Positions 16,555-48,681 of a stretch of 64,000 nt of DNA are shown in pieces. The DNA is taken from NCBI GenBank assembly GCA_963840855.1, contig CAWJBB010000069.1, forward strand, positions 1-64,000. The letters run 5' to 3'. This DNA comes from an uncultured delta proteobacterium. Lineage in GTDB: Bacteria; Desulfobacterota; Binatia; UBA9968. The notes under the pieces are model-generated. The model searched no databases and was not told the origin of the DNA. It saw nothing but the letters and a program-made list of their open reading frames with translations. The translations under genes and the position numbers were made by a program. The stretch's first letter is position 1. Every line of letters begins with the position of its first letter.

Positions 16555-17896
16555 ATGCGTATTCGGTTCTGGGGGACGCGAGGCTCGCTGGCAAAGCCTG
16601 GGCCTAGCACGATTCGCTACGGGGGCAACACCTCCTGTGTGGAGGTGCGCGCCGCGGACGGGACGCTGATTATCCTGGACTGCGGCACCGGTGCTCATGA
16701 TCTGGGCCGAAGCCTCGTGGCGTCGGGCGAGCGCCCCATACGCGGTCATCTCCTGCTTACTCACACGCACTGGGACCATATCCAGGGTTTTCCCTTTTTC
16801 GCGCCGCTCTTCATCCAGGGGAACGAGTGGGACGTCTACGCGGCGCAGGGTTTGGGGCAGCGCCTGGAGGAGACCCTTGCCGGGCAGATGGAGTACGAGT
16901 ATTTCCCGGTGACACTTGGCCAGCTCGACGCCACGATTCGCTACCACGAGCTCAACGAAGGCGTCTTTGACCTTGGCGCCGTTCAGGTCACCGCCCGTTA
17001 CCTGAACCACCCCGGGCTTGCACTGGGTTACCGCTTGGAAGCCGGCGGCGTGGCGGTGGTCTACGCTACCGATCACGAGCCGCACTCGCGCCATCAGCCC
17101 GAGGTGGCCGACCCGGCTCAGCTCCTCCCGGTTCACCGGGAGGACCAGCGGCACGTGGAGTTCCTTGCCGGCGCTGACCTCGTGATCCACGACGCGCAGT
17201 ACACGCTGGAGGAGTACCCCAGCAAGATGACATGGGGCCATAGCCCGGCCGAGCTGGCCGTGGACTTTGCCCTCGCAGCGGGCGTGAAGCGGCTGGCGCT
17301 CTTTCACCATGATCCGCTCCGCGATGACGCGGCGCTAGACCGGCTGGTGGAGAGCTGTCGCCAGCGCGCTGTTGCCGGCGGGCTCGAAGTCTTTGCTGCC
17401 GCAGAGGGCCAGACGATCGAGCTGGCGGAGCGGGAGGCCGTCACGCCCCGCGCTGCGAGGCAACCGGAAGCTGCCATTGCCAAAGGGGTTGGAGCCGCGT
17501 CAGCGACCATCTTACTCGTTGACGACGACCCGGACATCGTGCGTCTTTTGACCATGACACTCCGGCCAGAGGGCTACCGGCTATTGTCGGCGAGCGACGG
17601 GAACGCGGCGCTGGAGATCGCCCGGGCCGAGCGCCCGGATCTTCTCCTGCTGGACTGGAACATGCCCGGCCGCAACGGGCTGGAGGTGTGCCGCGCCCTG
17701 CGCGCCGAGCTCAGATCCGGACCTCCGCAACGTGCCCGTGGTGCTCCTGACCGCGCAGGTGGGGGCGGAGGACACTGCGGCGGGATTCGCGGCCGGGGTC
17801 ACCGACTACGTGACCAAGCCATTCAAACCAGCGCACATCCGCTCGCGCGTTCACGCGTGGCTCAGGCGAAAGCGTGCTGGCGCAGAGGGCACGTGA
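16555..17896 (+). CDS. MBL-fold metallo-hydrolase fused to a C-terminal receiver domain, frameshift near 17712
   Basis: FWGTRGS, GGNTSC, THTHWDH, WGHS and FHHDP motifs; then ILLVDDD, LLDWNMPG and, in the shifted frame, PVVLLT...DYVTKPF...*. Confidence 0.88.
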
Positions 17897-17899
17897 GCC

Positions 17900-32038: not shown

Positions 32039-33097
32039 ATGGCTGGTAGCGAAGCGGGTTGTGAAGTCATCATTTCTTCAGACTCCCACGTCATGGAGCC
32101 TTCGGAGATTCTAGTCGAACGGGCGCCGCAGTCTTTCAGGGATCAAGTGCCGCGCTTTCCGAAATTGCCAGTCGGATCGAGCTTTCAGTCTCATCCCGGA
32201 GGCTCGGACCCAACGCACCGAATCACAGAGATGGAAACGGATGGCGTAAGTGGCGAGGTGCTTTTCCCGACCTATCTTTTGCCCCACTTTGCGATGGACG
32301 ATGCCAAGCTTCAGGAAGTCTCTTTTCGCGCCTACAATGACTGGTTGATCGATTACTGCAAAGTGTCGCCCAAGCGTTTGCTCGGGATCGCGGCAATTTC
32401 GGTTTACAACATCGACGAAGGCGTTAAGGAGCTTGAACGCTGCGCCAAAGCCGGCATGTACGGCTCGATTATCTGGCAAGCGCCGCATCCGGATCTGCCG
32501 TTCAAGTCAGAGCACTACAATAAATTCTGGGCCGCCTCACAGGATCTGAACATGCCCGTCCATCTCCATATTCTTACCGGCCACGGCTACCACAAGGAGA
32601 CCGTTTTCGGGAACAAGAGGACGGGACCCGAGGCCTATCGCGGCAGCGTCAATCTCAAGCTCGCTGAAATCATCAACGCCTTTTTCGAACTGATTTTTTT
32701 CGGCGTCATGGAGCGTTATCCGAAGCTCAAATTCGTCAGCGTTGAAAACGAAATCGGCTGGATGCCCTTCATGCTGCAGCAATGGGATTACTATTATAAC
32801 CGGTTCAAGAACGAGAACCCGCCGCCGATTACCAAGAACCCGAGCGACTATTTCTCGAATCAGGTCTTCGGCACCTTCTTCCGCGATACCGTTGCGGGCC
32901 ATAGTTTCGAATGGTGGGGCCAGGACAACTGCATGTGGTCGAATGACTATCCGCATGGCAACTCGACATGGCCGGAGTCCAAAAAGTACATTGACCGCGA
33001 TCTGGGCCATCTCCCGGCGGAAACGCGGCGCAAGCTCGTTTACACCAACGTCAAGAAGCTCTACGACATCGATATTCCGCATCCGGCGTTGCAATAG
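32039..33097 (+). CDS. Amidohydrolase family 2 protein
   Basis: ISSDSHVMEP, AYNDWL, PVHLH and WSNDYPH motifs; AGGAGG RBS. Confidence 0.9.
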   Translation: MAGSEAGCEVIISSDSHVMEPSEILVERAPQSFRDQVPRFPKLPVGSSFQSHPGGSDPTHRITEMETDGVSGEVLFPTYLLPHFAMDDAKLQEVSFRAYNDWLIDYCKVSPKRLLGIAAISVYNIDEGVKELERCAKAGMYGSIIWQAPHPDLPFKSEHYNKFWAASQDLNMPVHLHILTGHGYHKETVFGNKRTGPEAYRGSVNLKLAEIINAFFELIFFGVMERYPKLKFVSVENEIGWMPFMLQQWDYYYNRFKNENPPPITKNPSDYFSNQVFGTFFRDTVAGHSFEWWGQDNCMWSNDYPHGNSTWPESKKYIDRDLGHLPAETRRKLVYTNVKKLYDIDIPHPALQ

Positions 33098-33125
33098 CGG
33101 GCGATCAAATCGGGAAGAAACAAAT

Positions 33126-33171
33126 GGCGCGCCTTCGGACGAGATAAAGTCTGACGGCGCGCCTTTTTTTT
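33126..33171 (+). terminator. Intrinsic terminator
   Basis: GGCGCGCCTTCGGAC...GTCTGACGGCGCGCC hairpin followed by a T-tract. Confidence 0.7.
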
Positions 33172-33220
33172 GGTGCGATGTGGATCTAATGTCTTGTGTC
33201 AGGCATTTATTTCTTCCTCT

Positions 33221-33307
33221 GTCATTCCGGGCAAGCTGGTGATAGCTAGCGCGACCCGGAATCCAGGCGAGATTTGGGGCCTGGATTCCCGCCTTCGCGG
33301 GAATGAC
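33221..33307. repeat. REP/dRS3-like palindromic element
   Basis: GTCATTCC...GGAATCCAGGC...GCCTGGATTCCCGCCTTCGCGGGAATGAC; contains ATTCCC-N8-GGGAAT at 33285..33304. Confidence 0.7.
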
Positions 33308-33387
33308 GAGGAGACGTCTCTAACTTTTTTAGCGGCCTGCACAGGAAGAGTGCTCGCAAAAAATAATAACTAGCGATAGGAGGTTTT

Positions 33388-35136
33388 ATGCCAGCCCGTT
33401 ACGGATCAGACCTGATCGTCGATTTAATGAAGGTGCTGGGGATTGAATATGTCGCGTTGAATCCCGGCTCGAGCTTTCGCGGTATTCACGATTCCCTGGT
33501 CAATTATGAAAGCGGAACCAAGCCCAATCCTGAGATCGTTCTCTGCTGCCACGAAGAAATCGCCGTCGCCGTCGCCCATGGCTACGCCAAAGCGACGGGC
33601 AAGATTATGCCGGCCATCGTGCACAATGTGGTAGGCCTGCAGCATGCGTCGATGGCGATTTACAACGCCTGGTGCGATCGCACGCCGGTGCTCGTCATGG
33701 GCGGCACCGGCCCGATGAACTCCAGCAAACGGCGCCCGTGGATCGACTGGATTCATACGGCGCTGGTGCAGGGCAATTTGGTTCGCGACTTCGTCAAATG
33801 GGACGACCAGCCCATCGGCATCGAGGCGATCCCGTCATCGATGATGCGTGGCTATCGCATCGCCATGAGCGATCCAGGGGGGCCGGTCTATCTCTGCTTC
33901 GATGTGACCGATCAGGAGGCGGCAATCGAGAAGGAAATTCCGCTGCCCGATCCGAATCGCTATCGCCCGCCGGCGCCGCTGCAAGCGGAAACCGCAGCGC
34001 TTCAGGAAGCGGCTCGGTTGCTTTCGTCGGCACAGACTCCGGTCATCGTTGCCGACTATGTGGGTCGGAGCAATGACGCGGTTCTAAGTCTCGTCAGACT
34101 CGCCGATCTTTTGTCGATCCCGGTAATCGACCTCGGCGCGCGACTGAATTTTCCCAACACTCATTCACTGAATCTTACCGGCAGAAATCGCGAGCTGATC
34201 GCCAATGCGGATGTCATTCTCGGATTGGACGTGACTGACCTTTACGGCGCCCTGGTGCGCTCGGATCCGAACACGCACGCAACCGTGCCAGCAACCAAGC
34301 CCGGCTGCAAAGTGATTCACGTGACGCTCGCCGACATTTCTATGCGTGGCTGGACCAGCGACTTTCAAGAATTGGCGCCGGTGGATTTGCCGATCGTCGC
34401 CAACACGAGAGTTTTTCTGCCCGCCCTCGAGGAAGAAATCAAAAAACAGGGAAAATTTTCCAAGACTGTGGTCGACGACAGACGAAAGGCCGTGGCCGCA
34501 CAGCATGAGGAAGTCCACGCGCGCTGGCAAAACGATCTAAAGAAGCGGTGGGACGAGCGGCCGATCGCGCCGCCGCGTTTGGCCTATGAAGTCTGGGAAG
34601 CGATCAAGAAAGAAGATTGGCTGTTGGTCGCCGGCGGCTTCCGCGGCTGGCCGAGCCGCCTGTGGACGTGGGACAAACCCGGTCTGTTTCTCGGCGGCTA
34701 CGGCGGCGGCGGGTTAGGTTATGGTCCAGCGGCTTCGGTGGGCGCTTCGCTTCCTTACCGCGGCACGGGCAAAATATGCGTCAACTTGCAGCGCGACGGC
34801 GAGATGCTTTACACGTCGAGCGCCATGTGGACGGCGGCCAACACCGGAGTGCCGCTGCTGACGGTGATGACCAATAATCGTGTTTATTATAACGACGTGG
34901 AGCATCAGGAAAAGGTCGCGATCACGCGCGGCCGGCCGGTGGAGAACAAACTAGTAGGCATGGAAATGGCCAGGCCCCCTGTAGACTTTGCCAACTTGGC
35001 GCGCTCCTTCAGTATCTACGGCGAGGGACCGATCACCGAACCGGAGCAGATTCGTCCGGCGGTGGAACGAGCGATCAAGGTTATTAAAGAAGAGAAGCGG
35101 CCGGCATTGGTCGATGTGTATATGCAACACGTTTAG
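33388..35136 (+). CDS. Thiamine pyrophosphate-binding enzyme (acetolactate synthase/decarboxylase superfamily)
   Basis: LNPGSS, CHEE, AHGYAK, GGLGYG and RDGE...NN TPP motif. Confidence 0.88.
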   Translation: MPARYGSDLIVDLMKVLGIEYVALNPGSSFRGIHDSLVNYESGTKPNPEIVLCCHEEIAVAVAHGYAKATGKIMPAIVHNVVGLQHASMAIYNAWCDRTPVLVMGGTGPMNSSKRRPWIDWIHTALVQGNLVRDFVKWDDQPIGIEAIPSSMMRGYRIAMSDPGGPVYLCFDVTDQEAAIEKEIPLPDPNRYRPPAPLQAETAALQEAARLLSSAQTPVIVADYVGRSNDAVLSLVRLADLLSIPVIDLGARLNFPNTHSLNLTGRNRELIANADVILGLDVTDLYGALVRSDPNTHATVPATKPGCKVIHVTLADISMRGWTSDFQELAPVDLPIVANTRVFLPALEEEIKKQGKFSKTVVDDRRKAVAAQHEEVHARWQNDLKKRWDERPIAPPRLAYEVWEAIKKEDWLLVAGGFRGWPSRLWTWDKPGLFLGGYGGGGLGYGPAASVGASLPYRGTGKICVNLQRDGEMLYTSSAMWTAANTGVPLLTVMTNNRVYYNDVEHQEKVAITRGRPVENKLVGMEMARPPVDFANLARSFSIYGEGPITEPEQIRPAVERAIKVIKEEKRPALVDVYMQHV

Positions 35137-35315
35137 CGGACTTTTTTTCTCTTGTTGACACGAATTGAGAGCAGGTGCGGCGTACGGGCGTCGGCTGGGC
35201 AGAAAACCCCTGGACGCCGCCGATCCGCATCGCTCAACTGCGCAGGGCTAACGATGTTACGCGTTACTTTTTGAAGCGCGAAGTTTACGGAATAGCCGGC
35301 CCTTCGCAAAGCGCT

Positions 35316-37997
35316 TTACGCGTGGGCTTCGGCCCAGTTGGCGCCGCTGTGTACTTCCACGGCCAAGCCGCAGCGAAGATCGACGGCTTGGGTCATTTCC
35401 TTCTCGATCAACGCGCGCGCTTGAGCGAGCTTGTCCGCAGGCACCTCGAAAACCAGCTCGTCGTGGACCGTTAGGAGCATTTTGGCGACCGGCTCTTTGC
35501 GCAACGCGGCGTCGACGTCGATCATCGCCTTTTTGAGAATGTCGGCGGCGCTTCCCTGGATCGGCGCATTGAGCGCCATGCGCTCGCCCAGTGCGCGCAG
35601 ACGAAAATTAGATGACTGCAACTCCGGGACATAGCGGCGCCGGCCGAACATGGTCGTGGTGAATCCGTCGACCTTTGCTTTCTCCACCTGGGCGGCGAGA
35701 AATTCTTTCACTTTCGGAAATTGCCCATAATAGGCATCGACGAAGCTGGCCGCTTCGTCCATTTCAACGCCGAGCCGCTGCGAGACCCCGTAAGTCGACA
35801 TGCCATAAGCGATGCCATAGGAAAACTGTTTGACCTGATTGCGCATCTCCGAAGTCACGTCTTTTAAAGGGACGCCGTAGACCTTGGCGGCGATGGTCGC
35901 ATGGAAGTCATGTCCTTGGGCGAAGGCCTGGCAAAAGGTCTCATCCCCGGAGAGATGCGCCAGCACTCGTAGCTCGATCTGCGAATAGTCCGCCGAAAGC
36001 AGCAGGTGCCCGGCCGCCGCGATGAAAGCGCGGCGAATTTGCCGTCCCAGTTCGCCGCGAATGGGAATGTTTTGCAGGTTGGGCGCGGTCGATGACAAGC
36101 GCCCGGTGGCGGCCGTGGTCTGCTCGTAAGTGGTGTGAATGCGCCGTGTCTTGGGATCGATGAGGCCAAGCAGCATCTCGCTAAAACCGTTCTTGAGCTT
36201 CGAGACCTCGCGGTATTCGAGCAACGACGCGACGATCGGATGGCGGCCGGCGAGCTTCTCCAACTCTGCCGCGTCTGTGGAGTAGCCGGTTTTGATTTTT
36301 CGCGTTTTGGGCAACGACAATTTTTCAAAGAGAATGCGCTGCAGCTGGACGTTGGAGTTCACGTTGAATTCCTCGCCTGCGACCTGCTGAATCGTTTGCT
36401 CCAGGCTTGTCATTTTTTGGCCGAAGTCAGAGTTCAGCTGATCGAGATAGTCGCGGTCGACAAGAATGCCGGTGTGCTCCATACGCGCGAGCACGGGGAT
36501 CAAAGGAAACTCCAGGGTAGTCGCAAGCTCCCAGACGCCTTGGGCGCGGAGTTGTTCTTCCACCACCGGCGCCACGGCGCGGATCGCCACAGCTTCCCGG
36601 CACACGCTCTGCTTCTCGTCGGTGGCAAATGAGAGCGTGCCTTGCTCTCCTGATTGCGGCTCGTTCTTCTCTGCATCGAGGGTGACGCCGAGGTGGCGAT
36701 TGACGATGTCGCGCAGTTGGTACCCTGACGAAGAACCGGGTTCGAGGAGATAGGCGGCGATCTTGGTATCACAACGGAGGCCGTAAATTTCGCCGCCGGC
36801 GCTTAGGATAGAGCGGAACAGTGCCTTGGCGTCATGTGCAGCTTTTTGCCGGTTAGGGTCTTTGAGACAACCGGCAAACCGATCCAGCGAGTCGGCGAAA
36901 GGCAAAAAGCGCGCTTCGCCGGCTCGGTCGCTCAGGGCGAGCCAGTCCTCATTCCACGCCAGCGCCACGACTTCGTCCGGATGCAGGTCGGCCTCGGCGG
37001 TGAATTCGGTCATCGAGTTTATTTCGAGCGCAGCCGACACCGCAACGTCGGCGCCATGAAATTTGAGATCCTTCAGCCGGTCATGCAGGGTGCGAAATTC
37101 AAGCGATAGAAAAAGCTTGCGCACCGCCTCCTCGTCCCATGCCTCCAGGCGAAGGTTTGCCGGGTCGAGGTCGAGCCGCACATCGTCAAGCAGGTGGCCG
37201 AGCTCTTTGTTGATCCGAACCTGATCTGCGTGTTTCTTAATGGCATCGCGCAGTTTCGGCGTTAGCTCGTCGGCATGAGCGATCACCTGCTCGATGTCGC
37301 CGTATTTGTTGATCAGCTGAGCGGCGGTTTTGTCGCCTACGCCGGGAACGCCGGGCAAATTGTCCGAAGCTTCGCCTTTAAGTGCGACGAAGTCGATCCA
37401 CTTTTCCGGCGCGACGCCGTAGCGCTCCAGCACCGTCGGAGCATTGTAACGGATCACGTCGGAAATACCGCGGCGCGTCATGATGACCGACACGCCGTCG
37501 CGGACCAGTTGTAGAATATCGCGGTCGCCAGTAACGATCATCACCTCACAACCTTCTTCTCTGGCGTGCTTGGTCAGAGTTGCAAGCAGATCGTCGGCTT
37601 CGTAGCCTTCCAGCTCGACCATGGGAATCCGCAAGCTCTCGAGTACTTCGCGGATCAAAGGCAACTGCTGTTTAAACAAGTCCGGGGTCGCCGCTCGTCC
37701 GGCCTTGTATTCGGCGTAACGGTCGAGGCGAAATTGCGGCGCACCCCTGTCGAAACAAACGACCACGCCCTGCGGCCGCTCGTCGGCGAGAAGCTTGATC
37801 AACATCGCGGTGAAACCGTAAACCGCGTTAGTCACTTGCCCCGAAGACGTGACGAGGGTGTCAGGAAGGGCAAAAAAAGCGCGGTAAGCCAACGAGTGGC
37901 CGTCGAGCAACAGCAGCTTATGTGCGTCTGCCTTGGCCGGCGCCGCCAGCTTGCGCTTAGACTTTTCTTCAGGCTGCTTCTTGGTTCTCTCGCTCAT
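35316..37997 (-). CDS. polA: DNA polymerase I
   Basis: 5'-3' exonuclease (LDGHSLAYRAF, YEADD, TGDRD); TGRLSS, PNLQNIP, DYSQIELR, NAPIQGSAAD and VHDE motifs. Confidence 0.97.
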   Translation of the reverse strand: MSERTKKQPEEKSKRKLAAPAKADAHKLLLLDGHSLAYRAFFALPDTLVTSSGQVTNAVYGFTAMLIKLLADERPQGVVVCFDRGAPQFRLDRYAEYKAGRAATPDLFKQQLPLIREVLESLRIPMVELEGYEADDLLATLTKHAREEGCEVMIVTGDRDILQLVRDGVSVIMTRRGISDVIRYNAPTVLERYGVAPEKWIDFVALKGEASDNLPGVPGVGDKTAAQLINKYGDIEQVIAHADELTPKLRDAIKKHADQVRINKELGHLLDDVRLDLDPANLRLEAWDEEAVRKLFLSLEFRTLHDRLKDLKFHGADVAVSAALEINSMTEFTAEADLHPDEVVALAWNEDWLALSDRAGEARFLPFADSLDRFAGCLKDPNRQKAAHDAKALFRSILSAGGEIYGLRCDTKIAAYLLEPGSSSGYQLRDIVNRHLGVTLDAEKNEPQSGEQGTLSFATDEKQSVCREAVAIRAVAPVVEEQLRAQGVWELATTLEFPLIPVLARMEHTGILVDRDYLDQLNSDFGQKMTSLEQTIQQVAGEEFNVNSNVQLQRILFEKLSLPKTRKIKTGYSTDAAELEKLAGRHPIVASLLEYREVSKLKNGFSEMLLGLIDPKTRRIHTTYEQTTAATGRLSSTAPNLQNIPIRGELGRQIRRAFIAAAGHLLLSADYSQIELRVLAHLSGDETFCQAFAQGHDFHATIAAKVYGVPLKDVTSEMRNQVKQFSYGIAYGMSTYGVSQRLGVEMDEAASFVDAYYGQFPKVKEFLAAQVEKAKVDGFTTTMFGRRRYVPELQSSNFRLRALGERMALNAPIQGSAADILKKAMIDVDAALRKEPVAKMLLTVHDELVFEVPADKLAQARALIEKEMTQAVDLRCGLAVEVHSGANWAEAHA

Positions 37998-38108
37998 CTA
38001 TTGTAGTGTAATCAGAGAATTTGTTGGCGGCAACCTCGCGCTGCAATCCGGGTAGCGGCTGTGCAGGATCCTATTCGTAGTTGCCGCTCATACGCAGACC
38101 AAAACTTG

Positions 38109-38756
38109 CTAGTAACTTTTGCCCTCGTACACCCAGCGATCTAAGTTATCGAAGTACTGCCGCCGTAGTACCAGACTCATCGCCACGGCGCGAGCGGCTC
38201 TCTCCTGCTTCTCTGCCGTCGTTGCGTATTTGACGAGAATCTCGAATGGGTAATTGCCGTGTTCTTCTTCGTCATCGTGGATTTTCTGGTAGGGCGCTGT
38301 TATCCATTTCGGCACGGTGCCGGCCTTTAAACTCTTGGCAATTAAATAGTCTGCCACACCCTCGCCCGCCATTGGAAACGCCGCGATTCTTTCAACCGTA
38401 TCGGTCAATCCTTCAAAAGCGTTAAACATCGCCATCTGCGCCGGCAGCGCTCGGTAATCGTGGGGCACGACGCCTTTAGCGCGCAGCGCTTCTTCGAGAA
38501 AAGTCGCGTGCTCGTATTCTTCGTGGGTCGCCTCCGCCAGGGTTTTCTTGACATCCAGTTCCGGCGTGCTTTTTAGCCAGCCGCCGAAGATCTCACCGGC
38601 GCGAATCTCGTTGAACAACCGGCTCTGCATAACCTTAATGCGCATCTCATCCGTGGTCAGCGGAATGTAGCTGTAGGCAGGGAGCTTGGCATCGAGAGAC
38701 GCGCAGAACTCGGCAACCTGTTTTTCTATCGTCTTGGCAAACTCTCGGCTGTCCAT
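38109..38756 (-). CDS. Ferritin-like diiron protein
   Basis: E...EEYEH...GE...DEEEH ligand pattern. Confidence 0.7.
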   Translation of the reverse strand: MDSREFAKTIEKQVAEFCASLDAKLPAYSYIPLTTDEMRIKVMQSRLFNEIRAGEIFGGWLKSTPELDVKKTLAEATHEEYEHATFLEEALRAKGVVPHDYRALPAQMAMFNAFEGLTDTVERIAAFPMAGEGVADYLIAKSLKAGTVPKWITAPYQKIHDDEEEHGNYPFEILVKYATTAEKQERAARAVAMSLVLRRQYFDNLDRWVYEGKSY

Positions 38757-38815
38757 ATCGACCTCTCTTGCCCGAAAGCACTTCCGTACTCGCTATCAAT
38801 AGAACGACCTCGGCG

Positions 38816-39727
38816 TCAAGTCTTTGCGTTTTGATCGTGGCGGTTAAAGGGACGTCTCTCATTTCTCAAAATTTTAGGTCGGGAAACGGCCAGGCCGACC
38901 CCACCCAGAATCACCACAGCCGATATCACGAGACGCAGACTAATCGCTTCGGATAAAACGAATACGCCGGCGAGCGCTGCTAGCACCGGCACCGCTAGCT
39001 GGACCGTCGCCGCTCGTGTCGCCGTCAGGCGAGGCAGTGCTGCGTACCACAGGACGTAGCCTACTCCCGATGTGATGGATCCCGATAGGGCCGCCCAGAG
39101 AAAACCCATAGGAGTTATAGTCAGTGTGGGTAGCCACAATAAGACGACACCGATAGCCAAGGGCACCGTGCGCAGAAAATTGTCCGTAGTGACGCCGACA
39201 GGATCACTGGCGCCGCGGCCTCTGAGAGAGTAAATGCCCCAGGCGATTCCGGCGGTGGCCATAAGAACCGATCCGAGGATGGAGGGGGCGGTGGTCCCGG
39301 GAGATACTAAATAAATCAGACCAGAAATGGCGATGAATAAGCCCAACCACTCCAAAATCTCCGGTCTTTCACCCGTAGAGAGGCCCACCGCGATCATTGT
39401 GATTTGCACCGATGCGAAGAGAATTAGCGCTCCGGTTCCCGCGCTCAAGCTTATGTAAGCGAAAGAAAAGGTTACGGCATATAGAAAAAGCATTGATGCA
39501 GAAATCCAACTGCCGGCGGATTTCCCGAAGGATTCCTTCCGGCGGAAAGCGGCGATTATCCATAGAGTGACCGCTCCGGTGATCAGCCTGACCGCTGTGT
39601 AGCTCGCCGGGTCGATGATCGGCCCAGCCAGTGCCAAACGGCAGAACACGGAATTGCCGGCAAAGGCGATGAGAGCGAGAACTGTAAGAGCCGCCGTGGC
39701 GGATCCTTTCGCAGATGATCTGCGCAT
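38816..39727 (-). CDS. DMT/EamA family transporter
   Basis: About ten hydrophobic helices; AFAGNSVFCR, YAVTFSFAY and GYVLWY motifs. Confidence 0.88.
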   Translation of the reverse strand: MRRSSAKGSATAALTVLALIAFAGNSVFCRLALAGPIIDPASYTAVRLITGAVTLWIIAAFRRKESFGKSAGSWISASMLFLYAVTFSFAYISLSAGTGALILFASVQITMIAVGLSTGERPEILEWLGLFIAISGLIYLVSPGTTAPSILGSVLMATAGIAWGIYSLRGRGASDPVGVTTDNFLRTVPLAIGVVLLWLPTLTITPMGFLWAALSGSITSGVGYVLWYAALPRLTATRAATVQLAVPVLAALAGVFVLSEAISLRLVISAVVILGGVGLAVSRPKILRNERRPFNRHDQNAKT

Positions 39728-39741
39728 CCCGTTTACATCGA

Positions 39742-40569
39742 TCAGCTCGACAACTGTTGACCGTTGGTGGCTCTTGAGCGCGAGGGTTTGCGGGCGAAGA
39801 AATTGACTCCTTGAACGAAAAGGTCTCTGGACAACTTGGCTTTAGCAGAAGTGCCTTCATAACAGTCGAAACGCTCCACAATCTCACCGTCTGTCAAACC
39901 AACGTCGGCAGTGATCCCATAAAGCTCTGCCTCCGGCAGAGCGCCGCCAATTCAGGCCGCCCAGAGATCGACGTCGCTTCGTGCCGTCAGCGAAAGTTCT
40001 CTTTGAACGACGACATCCGCGAGATACAAGCGTCCTCCGGGACGCAGCACCCTATAGACCTCGCGAAAGGCGCGATCTTTGTCCGGCGAGAGATTGAGCA
40101 CGCCGTTGGAGATAATGACATCCACACTCTCAGTCTCCACCGGCAACTCTTCGGCCATGCCCCGGCGCACCTCAATGCTTTGCCACAAACCAGCTTTTAA
40201 CGCACCGCGCTTGGCCAACTCAAGCATAGAAGGAGTCATATCCACTCCCATCGCGTGTCCCGACGGGCTGGCGCGGCGCGCGGCCAGCAAAAGATCCATG
40301 CCCGCGCCGCAGCCGATATCCAGCACTATCTCCCCTGGTCCGATGGGACCGATGCGATGGGGATTGCCGACGCCGGCAAAAGATGCGGTGGATTCCGCCG
40401 GAATTGTCGCCAACTCGTCCGGATCGTACCGGAGCATGCGGCAAGCATACTCGGGTCCCCGATGAAAATGAAAGTTTCCGTTGGGTTGCCGCGCTACCCG
40501 ATCGTATTCCGCGCGGACCAATTCCCGCAATTTATCGACATTGAACCCTACCGGACATATCGCCGCCAT
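39742..40569 (-). CDS. ArsM-like SAM-dependent methyltransferase, probable selenoprotein (TGA at 39952..39954 read as Sec)
   Basis: VLDIGCGAGMD, ISNGVLNL and RVLRPGGRL motifs; LWAA(TGA)IGGAL is followed by 69 open codons ending ...NFFARKP...LSS*. GGAG RBS before ATG 40569. Confidence 0.85.
39924..39942 (-). promoter_or_regulatory. Candidate bacterial SECIS hairpin
   Basis: mRNA reads UGA-AUUGGCGGC-GCUCUGCC-GGA-GGCAGAGC: a perfect 8-bp stem whose G-led loop starts 18 nt after the UGA. Confidence 0.75.
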
Positions 40570-40606
40570 AGTGATTCTCCCTGGCGCGATGGCTCGTTGC
40601 GCCAAC

Positions 40607-41167
40607 TCATGCTTTATCCAGCTGCACGGAGACCGTCACTGGTTTTGCAATACTATTGAACACCGGTGAGTATTTTTGGGCCATCCGGATAAGTTCCTCT
40701 TTCTGAGTTTCAGAGACATCTGCCTCGATCTTGAAATATAGACGGATATTCTGATATCCCACAGGAACCTCTTCCGATATTCCTAAAAAACCACGGAGAT
40801 CGAGATCGCCCTCATACCTGGATTCCAGTCCTTTTATAGCGATTCCCCGAGCAGCGGCATGGGCGACGAGACTTGTCGTCAGACAACCAGAGAGCGCAAC
40901 GAGAAGATACTCTACGGGATTCGCCCCCAGGTTTTTGCCGCATAGAACAGGCGGTTCGTCTATTTCAAAGACCAATGGGTCCCGCGAGTTGTCTTCCTTG
41001 AGAGCGCCGTAGAAATCTTTAACTGTCGCGCGATTGTAGGTTCCGTCGATCCACCTATTCGTTGCCCGAAATTTGAATTGAGCAACCTCTGGATTCCCCT
41101 TGATTACCTCCATGGTGCTGAACAACTGATCGACATTCACTCCGTTGATAATCTTTTCCTTTGCCAT
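40607..41167 (-). CDS. OsmC/Ohr family protein
   Basis: DEPPVL, GANPVEYLLVALSGC and DLDLRGFLG motifs; the second Cys position reads SPV. Confidence 0.85.
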   Translation of the reverse strand: MAKEKIINGVNVDQLFSTMEVIKGNPEVAQFKFRATNRWIDGTYNRATVKDFYGALKEDNSRDPLVFEIDEPPVLCGKNLGANPVEYLLVALSGCLTTSLVAHAAARGIAIKGLESRYEGDLDLRGFLGISEEVPVGYQNIRLYFKIEADVSETQKEELIRMAQKYSPVFNSIAKPVTVSVQLDKA

Positions 41168-41207
41168 TCTCTTACCCTCCTTTGCATTGTTGTTTTCTGC
41201 TTGCTAG

Positions 41208-41861
41208 TTAAACTGCTCCATCCTCAGCTAGATTGGGTATCGCCTTCTGAGAAGGGTAGTCGTTACCCAAAGAGAGTCGCCGCGGTTTCCGGAGCATCGG
41301 AAAAAGGGGAGGTGAAGATCCGACCTGAATCGTGTCGACTAACTCGAACCCGTGCCGCTGATAGAGCGGAACACTTTTTGGGCTCGACGATTCGAGATAG
41401 GCGAGTTTGCCCTCGCCATCGCACCGTTCAAGCGCATGTTTCAACAACGCCGAGCCATAGCCATTGCCTTGTTTGGCCGGGTCTACCCCGATCATGGGCA
41501 AATACCAGTGAGGTTCGGACGGATGGGAGCTATCCATCTGCTCGATAAAGGCAAAGATCTCTTGTTGTTTCTCCTCTGGAATCGTGCGTTGAAGCAACGC
41601 GGTCAGAGCGTTTTCGTCAGGGTGTACGTCCGGCGGAAGCCAAAGTGCCGCGCCTGAGTATCCATCAATCTGGTAAGCGCTCTTGTATTCAAACGCCTTG
41701 CCAGCGAATGCCCGTACGAAGCTCGGTAAATGGAGCAAATATTGATGCGGGTCGGGATAAAACCAGCGGGCCACGGGATCCGCACTAAACGCGAGCACGA
41801 CCGTGCCGACGGCTTGATCCGCATTTGATGGCGTTACGGTTTTGATTATTGGCTTGATCAT
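41208..41861 (-). CDS. GNAT family N-acetyltransferase
   Basis: AFSADP, HWYL, GVDPAKQGNGYGSALL, YLESS and LYQRHGF motifs. Confidence 0.9.
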   Translation of the reverse strand: MIKPIIKTVTPSNADQAVGTVVLAFSADPVARWFYPDPHQYLLHLPSFVRAFAGKAFEYKSAYQIDGYSGAALWLPPDVHPDENALTALLQRTIPEEKQQEIFAFIEQMDSSHPSEPHWYLPMIGVDPAKQGNGYGSALLKHALERCDGEGKLAYLESSSPKSVPLYQRHGFELVDTIQVGSSPPLFPMLRKPRRLSLGNDYPSQKAIPNLAEDGAV

Positions 41862-42039
41862 AGTCGGTTCTCCTTCATAGACATTTTGTTTTATTCGGCT
41901 CGAAGCTCCAGGCGAAAACGATCACGCACGCTTTGTCGTCCAAATGACTTCGCGCTGGTTCTATGAGTCACCATAAGAAATAGCCACATAGAAAACTACG
42001 AGGGCGAAGAGTAAAAATCCTTCCATGACGACATTCTCT

Positions 42040-43422
42040 TCAAGGTTTGATGTTCTGATTCAAATGAAAAACATTTTCGGGATCGTAGCGTCTCTTGATC
42101 TCCACCAGGCGATCATAGTTGGATCCGTAAGCCGCGGCGACACGGTCGCCCTCCTCCGCGGTCATAAAGTTTACGTAAGCGCCGGCCGACGCATAAGGCG
42201 CACTGGCGTTAAAAAACTCGCGCGCCCACCCAATACACTTCTGGTCATCCTTCGCGTCATCCCATCGCCCGTGGACGTTCAAGACGAACTTCGCGTCCCG
42301 GTGGCCGTAGGCCATTGCGTTGGGAGCGATGCGATTCGGCGCGCCGGCACACAGTCCTATGAAAATCTCGCACTGCGGGGAGGGGAGCTTCCCGGCAAAC
42401 TCGATAACGGAGTTCAGCGCTCCGTCGGCAAGCTCGGTGAAGTTATGGGACTTCCAGTAGTTTCTTGCGCCGGGTGTCAGCAACGGGTCAAATGCTTTTT
42501 GCCAGGCAACATAGGGCTGGGCGCCGATATGCTCACCGTGAGCATTGCCGAAAGCGCGCACAGGGGCGATGAGTTTCTCTGCTTCCGCGACGGCGCCAGA
42601 GTAAAAGATAGGCAGCACAACAACTTCCTTGCCGTGTATATTTTCCGGAAGAAAAGGCAATGGCGGCGCCTTGCGCAGCACAACCCAGATATTGAGCTCC
42701 TCGGGAGCCGAATTTACAAATTGACGATACTTGGTAAGTATCTGTTTTGCCTGGTTGAACGGAAAAACGATCAGGCCGGCGACTATTTCGGGACCCACGG
42801 GGAAAAGCTGGAATTCGAACTGAGTGACGACGCCAAAGTTTCCCCCGCCACCGCGAATCGCCCAGAAAAGATCTGCATTTTCGGTTTCACTTACTCGTAT
42901 TTTCTTGCCTTCGGCGGTGACCAGGTCGACAGAGATGAGATTGTCGATGGTCATGCCGTATTTGCGAGTAAGCCAGCCGAAGCCGCCGCCCAAGGTTAAG
43001 CCCGCAATGCCTGTCGTGGAATTGATCCCTACCGGCGTGGCCAGACCGTGCGCCTGAGTCGCTTCATCCAAGTTCGCGAGGGTCGCCCCGGGCTCGACAT
43101 AGGCGCGCCTTTTCCTGGAATCCACGCGAACGTTCTTCATTCTTGAAAAATCGATCGTAACACCATTGTCGCATAGGGCATTTCCGGCGATGTTATGCCC
43201 GGCGCCGCGAATTGAAATTTCAAGCCCGTTTTCTCGCGCAAACCTGATCACCGGCGGGACATCGTCAGCCTGCGTGCATTGCACGATAACCGCGGGCCGC
43301 CGATCGATCATGGCGTTCCAAATCTGGCGCGCTTCCTCGTAATCGGGCTGACCGGGAACTAAAATGTTCCCTTTGATAGTGCCTCTGAGCTCTTCTCTCG
43401 CTCTCGACGTTTGAGTTGTCAT
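42040..43422 (-). CDS. FAD-binding oxidoreductase (berberine-bridge-enzyme-like)
   Basis: IRGAGHN, GLTLGGG, RGGGGNFG, YVNF and YDPENVFHLNQNI motifs; paralog of 23193..24552. Confidence 0.92.
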   Translation of the reverse strand: MTTQTSRAREELRGTIKGNILVPGQPDYEEARQIWNAMIDRRPAVIVQCTQADDVPPVIRFARENGLEISIRGAGHNIAGNALCDNGVTIDFSRMKNVRVDSRKRRAYVEPGATLANLDEATQAHGLATPVGINSTTGIAGLTLGGGFGWLTRKYGMTIDNLISVDLVTAEGKKIRVSETENADLFWAIRGGGGNFGVVTQFEFQLFPVGPEIVAGLIVFPFNQAKQILTKYRQFVNSAPEELNIWVVLRKAPPLPFLPENIHGKEVVVLPIFYSGAVAEAEKLIAPVRAFGNAHGEHIGAQPYVAWQKAFDPLLTPGARNYWKSHNFTELADGALNSVIEFAGKLPSPQCEIFIGLCAGAPNRIAPNAMAYGHRDAKFVLNVHGRWDDAKDDQKCIGWAREFFNASAPYASAGAYVNFMTAEEGDRVAAAYGSNYDRLVEIKRRYDPENVFHLNQNIKP

Positions 43423-43455
43423 AATTACTTTGCCTCCAACCTTAAACTTGGCGCG

Positions 43456-44367
43456 CTAACAGAACGCCGGCGCCATTTCCTCTATTTGCTTTCTTCCTTC
43501 CGGCTTGATCTCCTCGACGGTTGCGAGAAAGTTCGGATGCGTCATGCCGGTGCCGAGATAGGTCCAGCGCATTCCTTTCAGGACGGCGTTGGTCATCTCC
43601 TCGCGCTCGCTCTTGGAGAGCTTTCTCCCGGTAGCTTGAACGAAGCTTTCCGCTTCGAACTCCGCTTGCTGCTTGATGCCGTTATCGATGAACATGCCGA
43701 TTTCGGCGTACTCTTCAAAGGCCTGATCGATCTCTTTTGGAGTAGAACCCTTCACGACCGACTCGACGATCAAAGTATCGAGCTTGGTATGCTGCGACTC
43801 TTCCAGCCAGTGGTGCTTGAGCAAGCTTTTGAACTGGGGGTCGAGGTTCTGATTATCCCTGACGCCTTCGATGTAGTGCCTCAGGGTGATCCATTCGATA
43901 TGGAGAATCGCAATTCCGACACCCAAAGGACTGTGCGAGAGAACAAAGCGGCTTATGTCTTCGGCGGGACCGATGAAGTCGCATTTGCTGCCGAACCCGC
44001 CCTCGAATTCTTGCCGGAAGCGCTTGAACAGATGAATGTGCTTTGCCTCTTCGCCGGCGAACTGAAGCAGAGCCCGCGCGCGGTAGTCATCTCCAGAGAG
44101 ATGAAGCCGCGCATGATCCACTACGTAGGGGAGAATAAATTCTTCCACCAGACCGAACATGGCGAGATATTCATGGCCGCGAATCTGATTCAAAGTGAGC
44201 TGTTCCTCGGCAGTGAGAAACGAAAGCTGTTTCACCTGCGCCAAGGATTCCGGCATGAACGGTTTGGTGAAGTCGAGCTGCTTGTCGCCGCCAATGATAT
44301 CGTCCACTTTCCAGCCGATTCGTTCAGAGGCGGCGAGCGCCGATTGGTATGAATAACTGTGTTGCAT
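43456..44367 (-). CDS. Ferritin-like diiron protein (AurF/oxygenase-like)
   Basis: VEEF, EEAKH, HIEW and HHWLEESQH ligand pattern; AAGGAGG RBS. Confidence 0.7.
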   Translation of the reverse strand: MQHSYSYQSALAASERIGWKVDDIIGGDKQLDFTKPFMPESLAQVKQLSFLTAEEQLTLNQIRGHEYLAMFGLVEEFILPYVVDHARLHLSGDDYRARALLQFAGEEAKHIHLFKRFRQEFEGGFGSKCDFIGPAEDISRFVLSHSPLGVGIAILHIEWITLRHYIEGVRDNQNLDPQFKSLLKHHWLEESQHTKLDTLIVESVVKGSTPKEIDQAFEEYAEIGMFIDNGIKQQAEFEAESFVQATGRKLSKSEREEMTNAVLKGMRWTYLGTGMTHPNFLATVEEIKPEGRKQIEEMAPAFC

Positions 44368-44411
44368 TTTCCTTTCCTCCTTCTCAAGTGACGTTGCTGG
44401 AAATGCCTTAG

Positions 44412-44427
44412 AGCAGCCCGCGTGCCA
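44412..44427 (-). promoter_or_regulatory. Sigma54 (-24/-12) promoter
   Basis: TGGCAC-GCGGG-CTGCT, about 45 nt upstream of ATG 44367. Confidence 0.75.
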
Positions 44428-44495
44428 TCTTGTCTACGTCGGATTTATTGAGGAAAACCATTGACTTAGCGAAATCCACCATTATCGGAACAGTT

Positions 44496-44551
44496 GTGAG
44501 ATTTCACGAGTTACGAGATCTCACGTTCATCCCCTGTGAGATCTCGTAACT
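44496..44551. promoter_or_regulatory. Putative enhancer/operator
   Basis: Perfect 16-bp inverted repeat AGTTACGAGATCTCAC-N11-GTGAGATCTCGTAACT (44509..44551), plus GTGAGATTTCAC at 44496. Confidence 0.6.
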
Positions 44552-44669
44552 GAAGACGAAGGAGTTAACCGGGGAAGGTGTCAATCGAATGTCGCCCAAT
44601 GTCAGGACAAAATCTGTGTGAAGGATTATTCCCCTTTCATAACAAGACAAAATTCGGAGGCGTAAGCGA

Positions 44670-46028
44670 ATGCCGACCTTTAAATCCGGGGCCAAAAAAC
44701 CCAAAAATATCGTCGCAGGACTCTGGCTAGTGTGGGTTGCCTTACTGGTTGCGCAGTCATCTTACGCTGACGACAAACTCACTGACATCTACACGTTTCC
44801 GGACATCCCCATCAAAGAATTTCACAACAAGTTGCTTCCCGATAGTGTCGGCGACCATCGCAAAATTCTTCTGGGGTCGGTCGGTAGCGATCTAGGGCGC
44901 GGGCCGAAAGATCCGCGCGATGAGTTTTGGATGGTGACCGACCGCGGACCTAATGGTCAGATCAAAGTGGATGGGACGAGCCGCCGTACTTTTTTGGTGC
45001 CGGAATTCAATCCGACGATCCTCAGAGTCAAAACCCAAGGCAAAGAGGTTGGTATTTTGGAAGCCCTACCCATCGTCGGCCAATCGGGGAAGGCCGTGAC
45101 GGGACTGCCGAATTTGAAAGGGATGAACGAGACGCCATACGACTACTCCGCTCAGGAATTGCTAAATTTCAATCCTAACGGTCTTGATACTGAAGGGCTC
45201 GTCCGCACGACCGCTGGTGACTTCTGGATCGTCGAAGAGTATGGGCCTTCACTTGTCCACGTGGATCGAACCGGCAAGGTGCTGAAGCGCTACATCCCCG
45301 AGGGGCTCAAGATCGAGGATACGGACTATCCCGTCGCCAACGTGTTGCCGGCGATCTATGGGAAGACAAAGATAAACCGAGGCTTCGAGGGGCTGGCGCT
45401 AAGCAACGATGAGAAGACTCTCTATATCGTGCTCCAAAGCCCGCTGCTCAATCCTGACGGAAAGACCGGAAACGCTTCGCGCAACACCCGGGTGCTTGTG
45501 TTCGACATCGCCGCCGAGAAAGTCACAGCCGAGTATACCTATCGATTCGACGCGTCGAGCGAATTCGACTCTAATCCCAGGAACAGCCCTGATGAGATGA
45601 AACTCTCGGGAGTAGCCTTTCTCAACCCAACCACACTTCTCGTGCTTGAGCGGACGGACCGCGTGGCGAAACTTTACAGCGTGGACATGAGTAAAGCGAC
45701 GAACATTCTTAACACTCGATGGGACGACGCGAAGACGGCTCCCGCTCTTGAAGCGCTCCACGATCCGGCGAGTGCGCAAGTGCGCGTTCTACCCAAGTCG
45801 CTCGTGCTCGATTTGAGTTCTCTATCCGGCATGCCCGAGAAGATCGAAGGAATCGCAGTGCTCGACCGGCATACCATCGCCGTCGCCAACGACAACGACT
45901 TCGACAGCGAAGAAAGTAAAGATGATGCTGAAGGCAACGGTATCGGAAAGGCAAAGAAATCTCAGATTTTCGTCATTTCTCTAACCAAACCCCTGCCGCT
46001 CCCTCTAGACAGCGTCGCTGCCCGCTAA
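44670..46028 (+). CDS. Esterase-like activity of phytase family secreted protein
   Basis: Signal peptide; TDRGPN, GLDTEG, EEYGPS, NRGFEGLA, LQSPL and NDNDF motifs. Confidence 0.88.
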   Translation: MPTFKSGAKKPKNIVAGLWLVWVALLVAQSSYADDKLTDIYTFPDIPIKEFHNKLLPDSVGDHRKILLGSVGSDLGRGPKDPRDEFWMVTDRGPNGQIKVDGTSRRTFLVPEFNPTILRVKTQGKEVGILEALPIVGQSGKAVTGLPNLKGMNETPYDYSAQELLNFNPNGLDTEGLVRTTAGDFWIVEEYGPSLVHVDRTGKVLKRYIPEGLKIEDTDYPVANVLPAIYGKTKINRGFEGLALSNDEKTLYIVLQSPLLNPDGKTGNASRNTRVLVFDIAAEKVTAEYTYRFDASSEFDSNPRNSPDEMKLSGVAFLNPTTLLVLERTDRVAKLYSVDMSKATNILNTRWDDAKTAPALEALHDPASAQVRVLPKSLVLDLSSLSGMPEKIEGIAVLDRHTIAVANDNDFDSEESKDDAEGNGIGKAKKSQIFVISLTKPLPLPLDSVAAR

Positions 46029-46059
46029 CATTTTGGAAAACTATCTAACGCGTTTCTCT

Positions 46060-46301
46060 CTACGCCGCTTCGGCGGGCAAGCAAAGCGCAAAGATCATGG
46101 CGCTCAGCGCAAGGACGGTAATTTCTCTCTTCATGTTTTTCTCTGCCCTCTCTACTCGACACTCGACACTCGCCCCACTTCTCACTTGATCACCTTATCG
46201 GCTCTATACAGCATAGATTGCGGAATGGTCAGGTCGATCTGCTTAGCCGTCTTGAGATTGATCACCAGCTCGAACTTCGTCGGCTGCTCCACCGGCAGGT
46301 C
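46060..46301 (-). pseudogene. Remnant junction of two tandem ABC SBP genes
   Basis: 46182..46301 encodes [39 protein letters not shown]. 46060..46134 encodes MKREITVLALSAMIFALCLPAEAA*. Confidence 0.85.
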
Positions 46302-46404
46302 AGGGTCATTGTCCTTGGATCTTTGTGCCTGCTGCCGTACCATGACAATGACCCTGACGGTATTTTCCCATCTGCGCAGGTTGTGCTCAGCTAAAGGTGC
46401 TCCA

Positions 46405-47349
46405 TTAATTTAAAGGCTGTGGCTCGCCGTAGATAAAGTCATCCATCATAACGATGTCGTTCTTCCCATCATCATCCGGCCCCGGAGCAACGTCGCCGGT
46501 TGTGATCCGGACCCGCGCGATGCGCGCATCCTCAAACACGATGCCGAAGAAAGTAAGGCTCGCATCGCCCGGCGAGGCCGGAACGAAACTGCTGAACAAA
46601 AGCTTGCCGTACGCGTCGAAGTACTCCATCAGCGTGCTAGCGCCGCGGTTTCCTTTCTTCTTTCCAGGTCCGCTCCCATCCGGCTGGTCAACGTCTGTGA
46701 AGACCGCGCCGAATCCGGTGATCGTTGCTGGTATAGCTCCATTGGTGCCGGGCACGAAGAACGAAGCTTCGGTGATGTTGCTGCCCACTGGAGTGAACAA
46801 CCGCGACGGGCTGAAGGCGCTGAAAGTGGTGCCGTAGGTCGGATTGTTAAAGAGCGCCTCAAGGCCGCCCTGAGGCCCGCCCGATGCGGGAGCCTGTGAA
46901 AGGCCTATCCCCGGTGTCGTGAACTGACCACCGCGTGTGTTTAAGAACACATTGAACGGCGTTACCGGGGCTGTGGTATCCAGAACATTGGGGGGGTTGG
47001 CGCCGTCCCAGTTGATCTCGCGGCGACCGCTTCTGTCGAGCGGCGGTGGGTTATTGCCGTTGTTGGGATCGCCCAGAGCAGTGCGGAATGCAGCGACCGT
47101 CCCCTGAATCGAGTCGGCCGTTGACCCTGCCGCCTGGAACACAGCCGGCGCAACAAAGTCCTTGGATGAGTTGCCCTGCGCGTGCGCAGCCTGGCGGACT
47201 GGGACTAGCAACGTCATGAACAACAAGCCAAACGCGAGTACGTGAGTTAAAGGTACATGCCTCTTCATGATTGCATGCTCTATCGAGCCCCCTAGGCGGG
47301 GATGGTTATTTTCGACTTCCTCAATTTTCGTTGTAACTATGGTATTCAT
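46405..47349 (-). CDS. Hypothetical secreted protein (start may be the internal Met of MKRHVP)
   Basis: Signal-peptide-like segment; [17 protein letters not shown] and MDDFIYGEP in a long G/P-rich ORF. Confidence 0.7.
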
Positions 47350-48233: not shown

Positions 48234-48423
48234 GGGTACTTCGAGCCAAAGGGATTTTGCTTCTGACATTGATTTCCTCCGCATGGAGCCGAAGCCTTTT
48301 CGCCGCCATAAAACAGAGGGAGCAAACAATCATATCAAGCAGCCTAATGCCTTCATCTTCGCTCGTAACCCGATAGGCGCTACCTACAATCAACTCCCCG
48401 CAATATTGACAAGAACGTTTCAT
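48220..48423 (-). CDS. Small CxxC...CxxC zinc-finger-like protein
   Basis: MKRSCQYCGE...VCSLCF; GGAAGGAG RBS. Confidence 0.6.
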   Translation of the reverse strand: MKRSCQYCGELIVGSAYRVTSEDEGIRLLDMIVCSLCFMAAKRLRLHAEEINVRSKIPLARSTHEQE

Positions 48424-48681
48424 AACTCTCCTTCCAAAAACACGACACTCAATATCAGGAATAGACCAGACGGAACCGACCGATGATGGGAGTCGAACCC
48501 AGACCTCTTGGATGCCATTCAAGAATGTATCGTGACTAGATCCACCTGTTTACTGGTGTAGCCTAAGCATTGTGCCCTCGAGCTCCTCGAGGAGGACGGT
48601 GCGGGATTCATCGAACCGAATACGGTCAAAAATCATTCCGGAGAAGCACCACGATTTTTCTAATCATAGGCCCGCCTCTAG

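Follow-up and report, generated by a model that had tools for sequence, protein, structure and literature searches.

A probable selenocysteine codon and its covarying hairpin in an ArsM-like methyltransferase gene of an uncultured Binatia bacterium

We analysed a stretch of 64,000 nucleotides of DNA from an uncultured delta proteobacterium of the Binatia lineage (contig CAWJBB010000069.1 of assembly GCA_963840855.1, positions 1 to 64,000; hereafter the window), and found that a gene on its minus strand, which is called as an ArsM-like methyltransferase of 205 residues, very probably continues through an in-frame UGA and encodes a selenoprotein. Codon 206 of this gene would be read as selenocysteine (Sec) with the help of a working-type selenocysteine insertion sequence (SECIS) located directly downstream. 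A preliminary description of the window had already assigned Sec to this codon, and the assignment is supported by the counts of codons at the corresponding column in homologs, by a hairpin that is linked to TGA and covaries, and by conservation of the protein downstream of the codon. Selenoproteins of this family have been catalogued since 2007-2008, and the gene is a new, mis-annotated member. The elements of the gene are as follows.

39742..40569, minus strand: full gene of the ArsM-like protein, a probable selenoprotein and class I S-adenosylmethionine (SAM) methyltransferase; 275 codons plus a final TGA stop
39952..39954, minus strand: in-frame UGA, codon 206, in the motif U-I-G-G (UxxG), for which the column comparison suggests Sec
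39943..39951, minus strand: spacer of 9 nt between UGA and stem, AUUGGCGGC, coding for I-G-G; its length is invariant, with no gaps in a 109-row alignment
39924..39942, minus strand: hairpin of the bacterial SECIS (bSECIS) type, with an 8-bp stem, GCUCUGCC/GGCAGAGC, and the apical loop GGA, which begins 17 nt past the UGA
39745..39951, minus strand: the 69 codons 3' of the Sec codon, absent from the 205-residue gene call and conserved in homologs
39742..39744, minus strand: true stop TGA; the ATG (39727) of the EamA-family gene follows 14 nt downstream

The gene starts with an ATG at 40569, just after the letters GGGAGAA, and homologs start with MA(A/T)TCP at the same ATG. The first 205 codons end in DLWAA and are followed by the TGA at 39954..39952, beyond which the frame stays open for 69 codons (IGGALPEAELYGITADVGLTDGEIVERFDCYEGTSAKAKLSRDLFVQGVNFFARKP..., IGGALPEAELY... 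through GVNFFARKP) as far as a second TGA at 39744..39742. When the frame is read through, the intergenic gap to the EamA/DMT gene is 14 nt, compared with 224 nt when it is measured from the first TGA. The spacer ATTGGCGGC (39951..39943) lies directly 3' of the TGA, and is followed by the two stem arms GCTCTGCC (39942..39935) and GGCAGAGC (39931..39924), which enclose the loop GGA (39934..39932) and form perfect Watson-Crick pairs at all eight positions. The open frame, both gap lengths and the perfect hairpin 9 nt past the UGA had been reported in the preliminary description, and each of them was recovered here exactly as described. A second Sec at the C-terminal TGA, as in the UXPK-star proteins, was also considered and rejected: the tail would read U-S-M-stop, the NCBIfam UXPK-star match stops short of the C-terminus, and the C-terminal tails of homologs are unconserved past ...FFARKP, so that the TGA at 39744..39742 is not a second Sec.

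The column of codon 206 was compared in homologs. We could place it in 79 of 80 homologous loci from contigs representing one genome per species, and found TGA in 44, Cys (TGC or TGT) in 34 and Arg (CGC) in one; Cys thus accounts for 34 of the 35 non-TGA genome loci. Closer homologs carry TGA, whereas more distant ones carry Cys. Among metagenome contigs, the column was placed in 78 of 80 loci, of which 77 have TGA, none has Cys and one has TCA; since Cys stood at this place in one of the six patterns used for the search, any bias would disfavour TGA. The single TCA locus (L145) keeps all eight pairs of the hairpin. The genomes of relatives contributed 29 loci, with 26 TGA, one Cys in a canonical ArsM paralog, one TGG (Trp) in a locus of the same genus (L029) and one fragment; this tally takes in the unpublished genomes G009 and G015, and the conclusions are independent of both. 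Matches of tblastn span residues 1-275 with one TGA, and the frames of homologs run on past the column and stay conserved. The clade is common in metagenome contigs and metagenome-assembled genomes, the latter labelled as Deltaproteobacteria/Thermodesulfobacteriota, Ca. Binatia, Acidobacteriota, Myxococcota, Chloroflexota and Verrucomicrobiia, among others.

The exchange of Sec and Cys was also followed on a tree of the family. All 151 distinct family rows (118 Sec and 33 Cys forms, after rows with the column less than 190 residues into the translation had been dropped) carry either Cys or Sec at the column, and on the tree the full set of Sec forms is divided from the full set of Cys forms by a single change. 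The tree came from a quick IQ-TREE search, in which Sec was written as C, so that the column was identical throughout, and in which the neighbouring residues encoded by the hairpin were kept. The codon had been described beforehand as a substitution at a conserved Cys site, and this agrees with the Cys of distant homologs and with the alignment of the column to the cysteine of GECLGGAL in CmArsM, described below.

Two side branches of the family carry TGA at the same column. Loci L034-L039, from the relatives G041, G011, G032, G023, G014 and G043, are approximately 42% identical to the protein and read DLWTA-U-IAGGLPC; their downstream hairpin is shifted and different (GGCCUGC-cgugu-GCAGGCU), so that the SECIS varies between branches of the family. 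In a distant branch (L041, L042 and L044, from the relatives G024, G026 and G029), the methyltransferase is fused, in frames of approximately 540 residues, to a domain whose CxxxCxxC motif is radical-SAM-like, and the column reads DDWFK-U-IAGAL. These frames end in ...CLKGST-TGA-A-stop, which is either a possible second, near-C-terminal Sec or a plain stop.

The hairpin itself is further evidence. Taken alone, it has a folding energy of -13.4 kcal/mol, and when a 71-nt stretch is folded, it is present both in the minimum free energy (MFE) structure and in the centroid (z = -1.97; 7 of 200 shuffles fold equally well). A 2026 review gives the bSECIS consensus as a loop of 3-9 nt, a stem of 4-16 bp, an MFE of at most -7.5 kcal/mol, a G within the first two positions of the loop (usually G[G/U]) and a distance from UGA to loop of 16-37 nt (PMC13188914). 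The present hairpin falls within every one of these limits, with a loop of 3 nt, a stem of 8 bp, GG, 17 nt and the above energy. A SECIS had been predicted in the preliminary description, and the hairpin not only agrees with these published constraints but also co-occurs with TGA and covaries.

Co-occurrence was evident in both sets of homologs. In the genome set, all eight pairs are formed in 37 of 44 TGA forms and at least seven in 44 of 44, compared with 0 of 34 and 2 of 34 Cys forms, respectively; the mean number of pairs is 7.84 for TGA forms versus 4.29 for Cys forms. Metagenome TGA forms show eight pairs in 62 of 77 cases and at least seven in 75 of 77. Homologs do not end at this position, and the hairpin goes with the TGA and is missing from the Cys forms. 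Covariation was examined in an ungapped alignment of 109 distinct rows, each consisting of TGA and 48 nt. Paired cells amount to 97.5% versus 93.2% in shuffles, and 26 cells show changes on both sides versus 2.5 expected; none of 500 shuffles reached either value. Compensatory changes occur in three of the eight pairs (14 rows have C-G for G-C, 4 rows U-A for C-G, and 8 rows either U-A or A-U for C-G), and pairing falls to 31-54% when the partner is slid by 1-3 columns. The compensatory changes recode the peptide from ALPEAEL to ALLEAEL, ALLETEL, ALSETEL or ALPEGEL, which indicates that it is the RNA structure, and not the peptide, that has been kept by selection. Cys forms mostly have ALPEPEL, which breaks the stem.

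Compared with known bacterial SECIS elements (fdhF and others, bSECISearch consensus), the hairpin is alike in its position 3' of the UGA, its small G-led loop and its 8-bp upper stem. It differs in being very compact, with a loop of 3 nt and no bulged U, and its binding by SelB is a prediction. It also differs in that its sequence is almost invariant across phyla, because its letters double as the A-L-P-E-A-E-L codons.

These data bear directly on the simplest alternative, in which the codon is an ordinary nonsense mutation, a sequencing error or a true stop and both the downstream frame and the hairpin are coincidental. Long open frames are frequent in GC-rich DNA, and gene callers end many database entries at the column: among the best 120 protein-database clusters, 63 terminate exactly before it, 56 read through it and one falls outside this pattern. 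The comparative data contradict this explanation, since TGA stands at the same column in the 44 species-level genomes and 77 metagenome contigs, the downstream protein is conserved and forms part of the fold, and the hairpin is tied to TGA and covaries. In addition, only 3 of the window's 1938 TGA triplets, counted on both strands and in every frame, precede a perfect 8-bp stem with a loop of 3-9 nt, a G within the first two letters of the loop and a spacing of 16-37 nt, and among these three only the TGA at 39954..39952 is flanked by long open frames (227 codons upstream and 69 downstream). We therefore regard a coincidental stop as very improbable.

The predicted structure assigns a place to the residues that would be lost by termination at codon 206. 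An AlphaFold model built from a 27-row alignment (predicted local distance difference test score, pLDDT, 87.3; predicted template modelling score, pTM, 0.88) has a helix at 213-222 and strands at 226-234 and 252-260. Because the helix and both strands lie past codon 206, the model indicates that the part lost by stopping there is integral to the fold. The best PDB matches, by sequence and by fold, are canonical ArsM/AS3MT enzymes, namely CmArsM (4fr0/4fs8/6cx6, with 4fr0 and 6cx6 among the top folds), CrArsM (5evj) and human AS3MT (8xt7). The Pfam domains found are Methyltransf_31, 11 and 25 and Ubie_methyltran, and the SAM-binding motif is VLDIGCGAGMD. The best NCBIfam matches, for which Cys was put in place of Sec in the query, are all of the ArsM type. 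They are the ArsM/AhpD 'UU' family (NF041537; 216 bits, cut-off 510), the PRK11873 arsenite methyltransferase (NF008823; 212.4 bits, below the curated cut-off of 263, with E = 8.4e-63 over profile positions 5-231 of 272), the ArsM/DUF2284 'UU' family (NF041536; 198 bits, cut-off 575) and the methyltransferase/UXPK-star family (NF047649; 192 bits, cut-off 460).

Active-site residues were compared by HMMER alignment, with CmArsM positions counted on the printed chain numbering. U206 corresponds to CmArsM residue 224, the Cys of GECLGGAL, so that the earlier assignment of the protein as ArsM-like, with the codon in the catalytic-Cys motif, holds. Val67 corresponds to residue 72, the Cys of YGCGS, and Gly156 to residue 174, the Cys of ISNCV. 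We take Cys72, Cys174 and Cys224 of CmArsM to form its As(III) site, a view supported here by the titles under which its C72A and C224A mutants stand in the PDB. V, I or L occupies position 67 in all 118 Sec forms and all 33 Cys forms; at position 156, Gly is present in 117 of the 118 Sec forms and in each of the 33 Cys forms. Cysteines are kept elsewhere: Cys5 (MAxxCP) in 117 of the 118 Sec forms and 28 of the 33 Cys forms, and Cys236 (FDCY) in 93 of 118 Sec and 28 of 33 Cys forms; Cys87, which sits in the SAM motif, is conserved in the family. The protein thus differs from canonical ArsM in having Sec for Cys at GECLGGAL and Val67 and Gly156 for Cys72 and Cys174, as well as in its length (approximately 275 versus 320-390 residues, or approximately 100 residues less than ArsM), the large C-terminal domain of ArsM being missing. 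Judged from its sequence, it is a descendant of the ArsM/AS3MT lineage that would work in a similar way, but it is not canonical ArsM. As the equivalents of Cys72 and Cys174 are replaced and the score lies below the ArsM cut-off, we class the protein as an ArsM-like methyltransferase selenoprotein, for which arsenite is a putative substrate.

Selenoproteins of this kind have been described in surveys. A Sec-containing arsenite S-adenosylmethyltransferase (PRK11873) appears in the selenoproteome table from the GOS (Global Ocean Sampling) data, with occurrence in prokaryotes and eukaryotes (PMC2398784), and arsenite methyltransferase is one of the top-20 bacterial selenoprotein families, represented by 41 proteins from 39 organisms (PMC5029168). 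Table 1 of the 2026 review gives the family as "experimentally verified", with the motif UxxG, and credits it to Fomenko et al. 2007; three fused or double-Sec derivatives, also with the UxxG Sec motif, are credited there to Haft and Tolstoy 2025 (PMC13188914). The caution in the preliminary description about novelty at the family level was therefore well placed (PMC2398784, PMC5029168, PMC13188914). To the extent that these sources describe them, the arsenite methyltransferase selenoproteins of the surveys share with the present protein the fold family, the UxxG motif and a bSECIS right after the UGA. The fused selenoproteins (NF041537, NF041536 and NF047649) provide three of its four best NCBIfam matches, in their methyltransferase part only; the protein differs from the fused ArsM selenoproteins in having neither the second domain (AhpD/DUF2284) nor the second Sec, and its scores are far below their cut-offs.

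Several observations weigh against the Sec reading, some of which concern the codon itself and others the decoding machinery of the strain. As to the codon, the 56 read-through database clusters have 39 C, 7 G, 4 S, 3 R, 2 L and 1 W at the column, so that in 17 of them the residue is G, S, R, L or W, each of which lies a single base away from TGA. Such clusters look like rare or very recent variants or errors of the TGA codon, not functional replacements, and would have been called at full length only because the stop had vanished. In the sequencing data, Logan contigs from related strains (runs X1, X2, X5 and X15; 85% likeness) bridge 39952-39954, and no difference falls there among the 40 of 186 differences listed; with the other 146 outside that list, this is a weak check on the codon. 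No sequencing run was found with more than 0.31 of the sampled words. The contig from X15, an RNA library, also bridges the codon, with DNA carry-over being possible.

The G, S, R, L and W clusters, together with the TGG of the same-genus locus, could be taken to mean that a variant code or near-cognate suppression makes the UGA one of the standard amino acids, namely Trp, Cys or Gly. The genome, however, uses TGA as a stop, for example as the terminator of this very gene, and a SelB-type hairpin with a G-led loop accompanies the TGA specifically, at SECIS spacing. Furthermore, the alternative seen in distant homologs is Cys, and selA and selD are present, selD itself having a canonical Sec codon. 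Decoding as a standard amino acid is thus scarcely credible.

As to the machinery, the assembly (G000; 7.1 Mb in 93 contigs, with 94% completeness and 8% contamination) has selA, selB and selD in a row on its contig C1. The gene selA is intact (616 bits), and selD (C1:37592-38518) has an in-frame TGA at the canonical Sec/Cys site (...VKAAG-U-AAKLGP) and no other break. The gene selB (C1:38613-40500), on the other hand, is split over two frames by one uncompensated extra base at C1:39984, as seen against the same-genus genome G002 (89% identity, 2.35 kb); comparison with the same-family genomes G005, G027 and G016 likewise places a one-base gap within a few bases of C1:39984. The Sec-type formate dehydrogenase alpha gene, fdhA (C40:300397-303685, with one TGA), lies in three frames through two single-base deletions, one at approximately 301536 (seen against G002 and G027) and the other at 302817-302821 (against G002, G027 and G007). 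No tRNA-Sec was found with Rfam among the 150 scored of 901 first-look candidates, the best of which (43 bits, cut-off 47) is a tRNA-Ser, the other leading hits being ordinary tRNAs as well, and Aragorn found none among 39 tRNA genes, nor any for Asn; blastn with the tRNA-Sec regions of ten relatives gave no match in the assembly. A relaxed Aragorn run (-ps80) produced dozens of obviously false "tRNA-SeC" calls and was discarded. Among 41 genomes, 30 have a tRNA-Sec above the Rfam cut-off, with G000 counted among the misses. Hence, of the Sec machinery that the preliminary description had named as a check, selA and selD are there, selB is frameshifted and selC was not found.

These breaks may mean that the gene is a relic, that is, a Sec gene by descent in a strain that has recently lost Sec decoding, so that the UGA now terminates translation and leaves a non-functional fragment of 205 residues. 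In favour of such a loss are the selB frameshift, which stays uncompensated over the whole aligned 2.35 kb, the failure of three methods to find selC, the broken fdhA, and the contrast between three uncompensated indels in approximately 5.7 kb of Sec-linked genes and none in approximately 17 kb of rpoBC/ribosomal genes. Indeed, no coding indels were found against G002 in the approximately 17-kb fusA-rpoC-rpoB-ribosomal region, and no uncompensated indel in the window between 30 and 50 kb. However, an ordinary gene, which is single in G002, has an uncompensated extra base at window position 17710 (plus-strand open reading frames (ORFs) 16555-18033 and 17900-19747), so that frame breaks also occur outside the Sec genes; indels introduced by the assembly or the consensus, or a general formation of pseudogenes, explain them equally well. 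Decay specific to Sec genes was dropped as the leading interpretation after this frameshift had been found and was kept as a rival. Moreover, the 69 downstream codons of the methyltransferase gene, its eight-pair hairpin and selA are all intact, selD is unbroken but for its in-frame TGA, tRNA genes are under-assembled, and relatives of the same genus and the same family have tRNA-Sec. The breaks in selB and fdhA may be consensus errors or real pseudogenes, and a relic is, in our judgement, unlikely. The reading of UGA as Sec is retained as by far the preferred one, and this strain probably still decodes Sec.

Other irregularities were noticed in the window. The ORF pairs 7394-8716/8667-9788 and 13188-14933/14863-16542 overlap in different frames. 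Stretches of approximately 80-240 nt at approximately 46067-46304, 48257-48434 and 33222-33309 match dozens of separate places in each of three related genomes with 76-94% identity, and resemble a dispersed repeat or a family like miniature inverted-repeat transposable elements (MITEs).

The methyltransferase gene lies in a same-strand cluster with the following neighbours.

41208..41861, minus strand: GNAT acetyltransferase (Pfam Acetyltransf_1/7/10), the first gene of the cluster
40607..41167, minus strand: OsmC-like protein (Pfam OsmC) in the Cys form (LSGCLTT), 37 nt upstream of the methyltransferase
38816..39727, minus strand: EamA/DMT-family transporter (Pfam EamA), the downstream neighbour
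38109..38756, minus strand: protein of 215 residues, with no Pfam or NCBIfam match; the last gene of the cluster

The order is GNAT, OsmC, methyltransferase, EamA and the 215-residue protein, with gaps of 40, 37, 14 and 59 nt; outside the cluster are polA downstream and an FAD/BBE oxidase upstream. The best NCBIfam match of the OsmC-like protein is an OsmC-related (seleno)protein family (61.9 bits, cut-off 95). Conservation of the neighbourhood was assessed with tblastn (E<=1e-8) in the flanks searched, the 16 closest TGA-form genome loci being L061-L075 and L077. EamA is found in the flanks of 8 of these 16 loci and adjoins the methyltransferase in 7; the GNAT gene recurs in 9 and the 215-residue gene in 7. 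OsmC occurs at 87-93% identity in 2 of the 16, and at approximately 33% identity in 7 more TGA-form loci, 6 of which are among the 16. At the more distant loci, EamA, GNAT and the 215-residue gene were not found in the flanks searched at this threshold, and OsmC-like matches are few. Pfam and NCBIfam searches of 12 neighbour proteins (32039-47349) revealed no ArsR, ArsC, ArsB, Acr3 or other ars genes. The neighbourhood was therefore set aside as a clue to arsenic, as no ars genes were identified among these proteins and the GNAT protein has no ArsN-type match.

With two of the three As(III)-site cysteines gone, a near-invariant N-terminal Cys5 and also Cys236 present instead, and the gene placed, in the closest relatives, in a cluster of GNAT, OsmC, methyltransferase and EamA exporter without ars genes, it is conceivable, though we hold the idea only tentatively, that the Sec clade is not an arsenite methyltransferase and methylates some other soft substrate on the selenol for export. 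Candidate substrates could be selenide, tellurite, antimonite or a thiol metabolite. If this were true, a very common function in soil and sediment would be hidden by an annotation that truncates the enzyme at 205 residues.

Based on the established bacterial pathway, expression of the gene as a selenoprotein may be pictured as follows. When the ribosome reaches the UGA, the hairpin with its 8-bp stem and GGA loop, 9 nt downstream, would bind SelB-GTP-Sec-tRNA(Sec). Sec would then be inserted and the remaining 69 codons translated; according to the model, it is these codons that would complete the Rossmann-type fold with its final helix and two strands. Located beside the SAM site at the position of the metalloid-binding Cys224 of CmArsM, Sec206 would most likely act as a soft nucleophile or ligand that holds the substrate, and the clade-conserved Cys5 and Cys236 are candidate partners for it.

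That the family exists as a selenoprotein is no surprise, given the existing catalogues. What the present gene adds is that it is regularly truncated by gene callers, with 63 of the 120 closest database clusters stopping at the UGA; two 205-residue forms are stored at NCBI under the name "methyltransferase domain-containing protein", and a widespread soil and sediment enzyme is thereby stored without its last two strands and its key residue. The compact, near-invariant SECIS, shared across many phylum labels, offers a handy search pattern, and the pair ALPEAEL versus ALPEPEL is a clean example of an RNA structure that constrains a peptide. In the assembly, intact selenoprotein genes coexist with a broken selB and fdhA, which would reflect either an error in the consensus or a Sec trait that was lost very recently. 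Finally, an abundant clade keeps one of the three metalloid-site cysteines of ArsM, in the form of Sec, and this makes its substrate a testable question.

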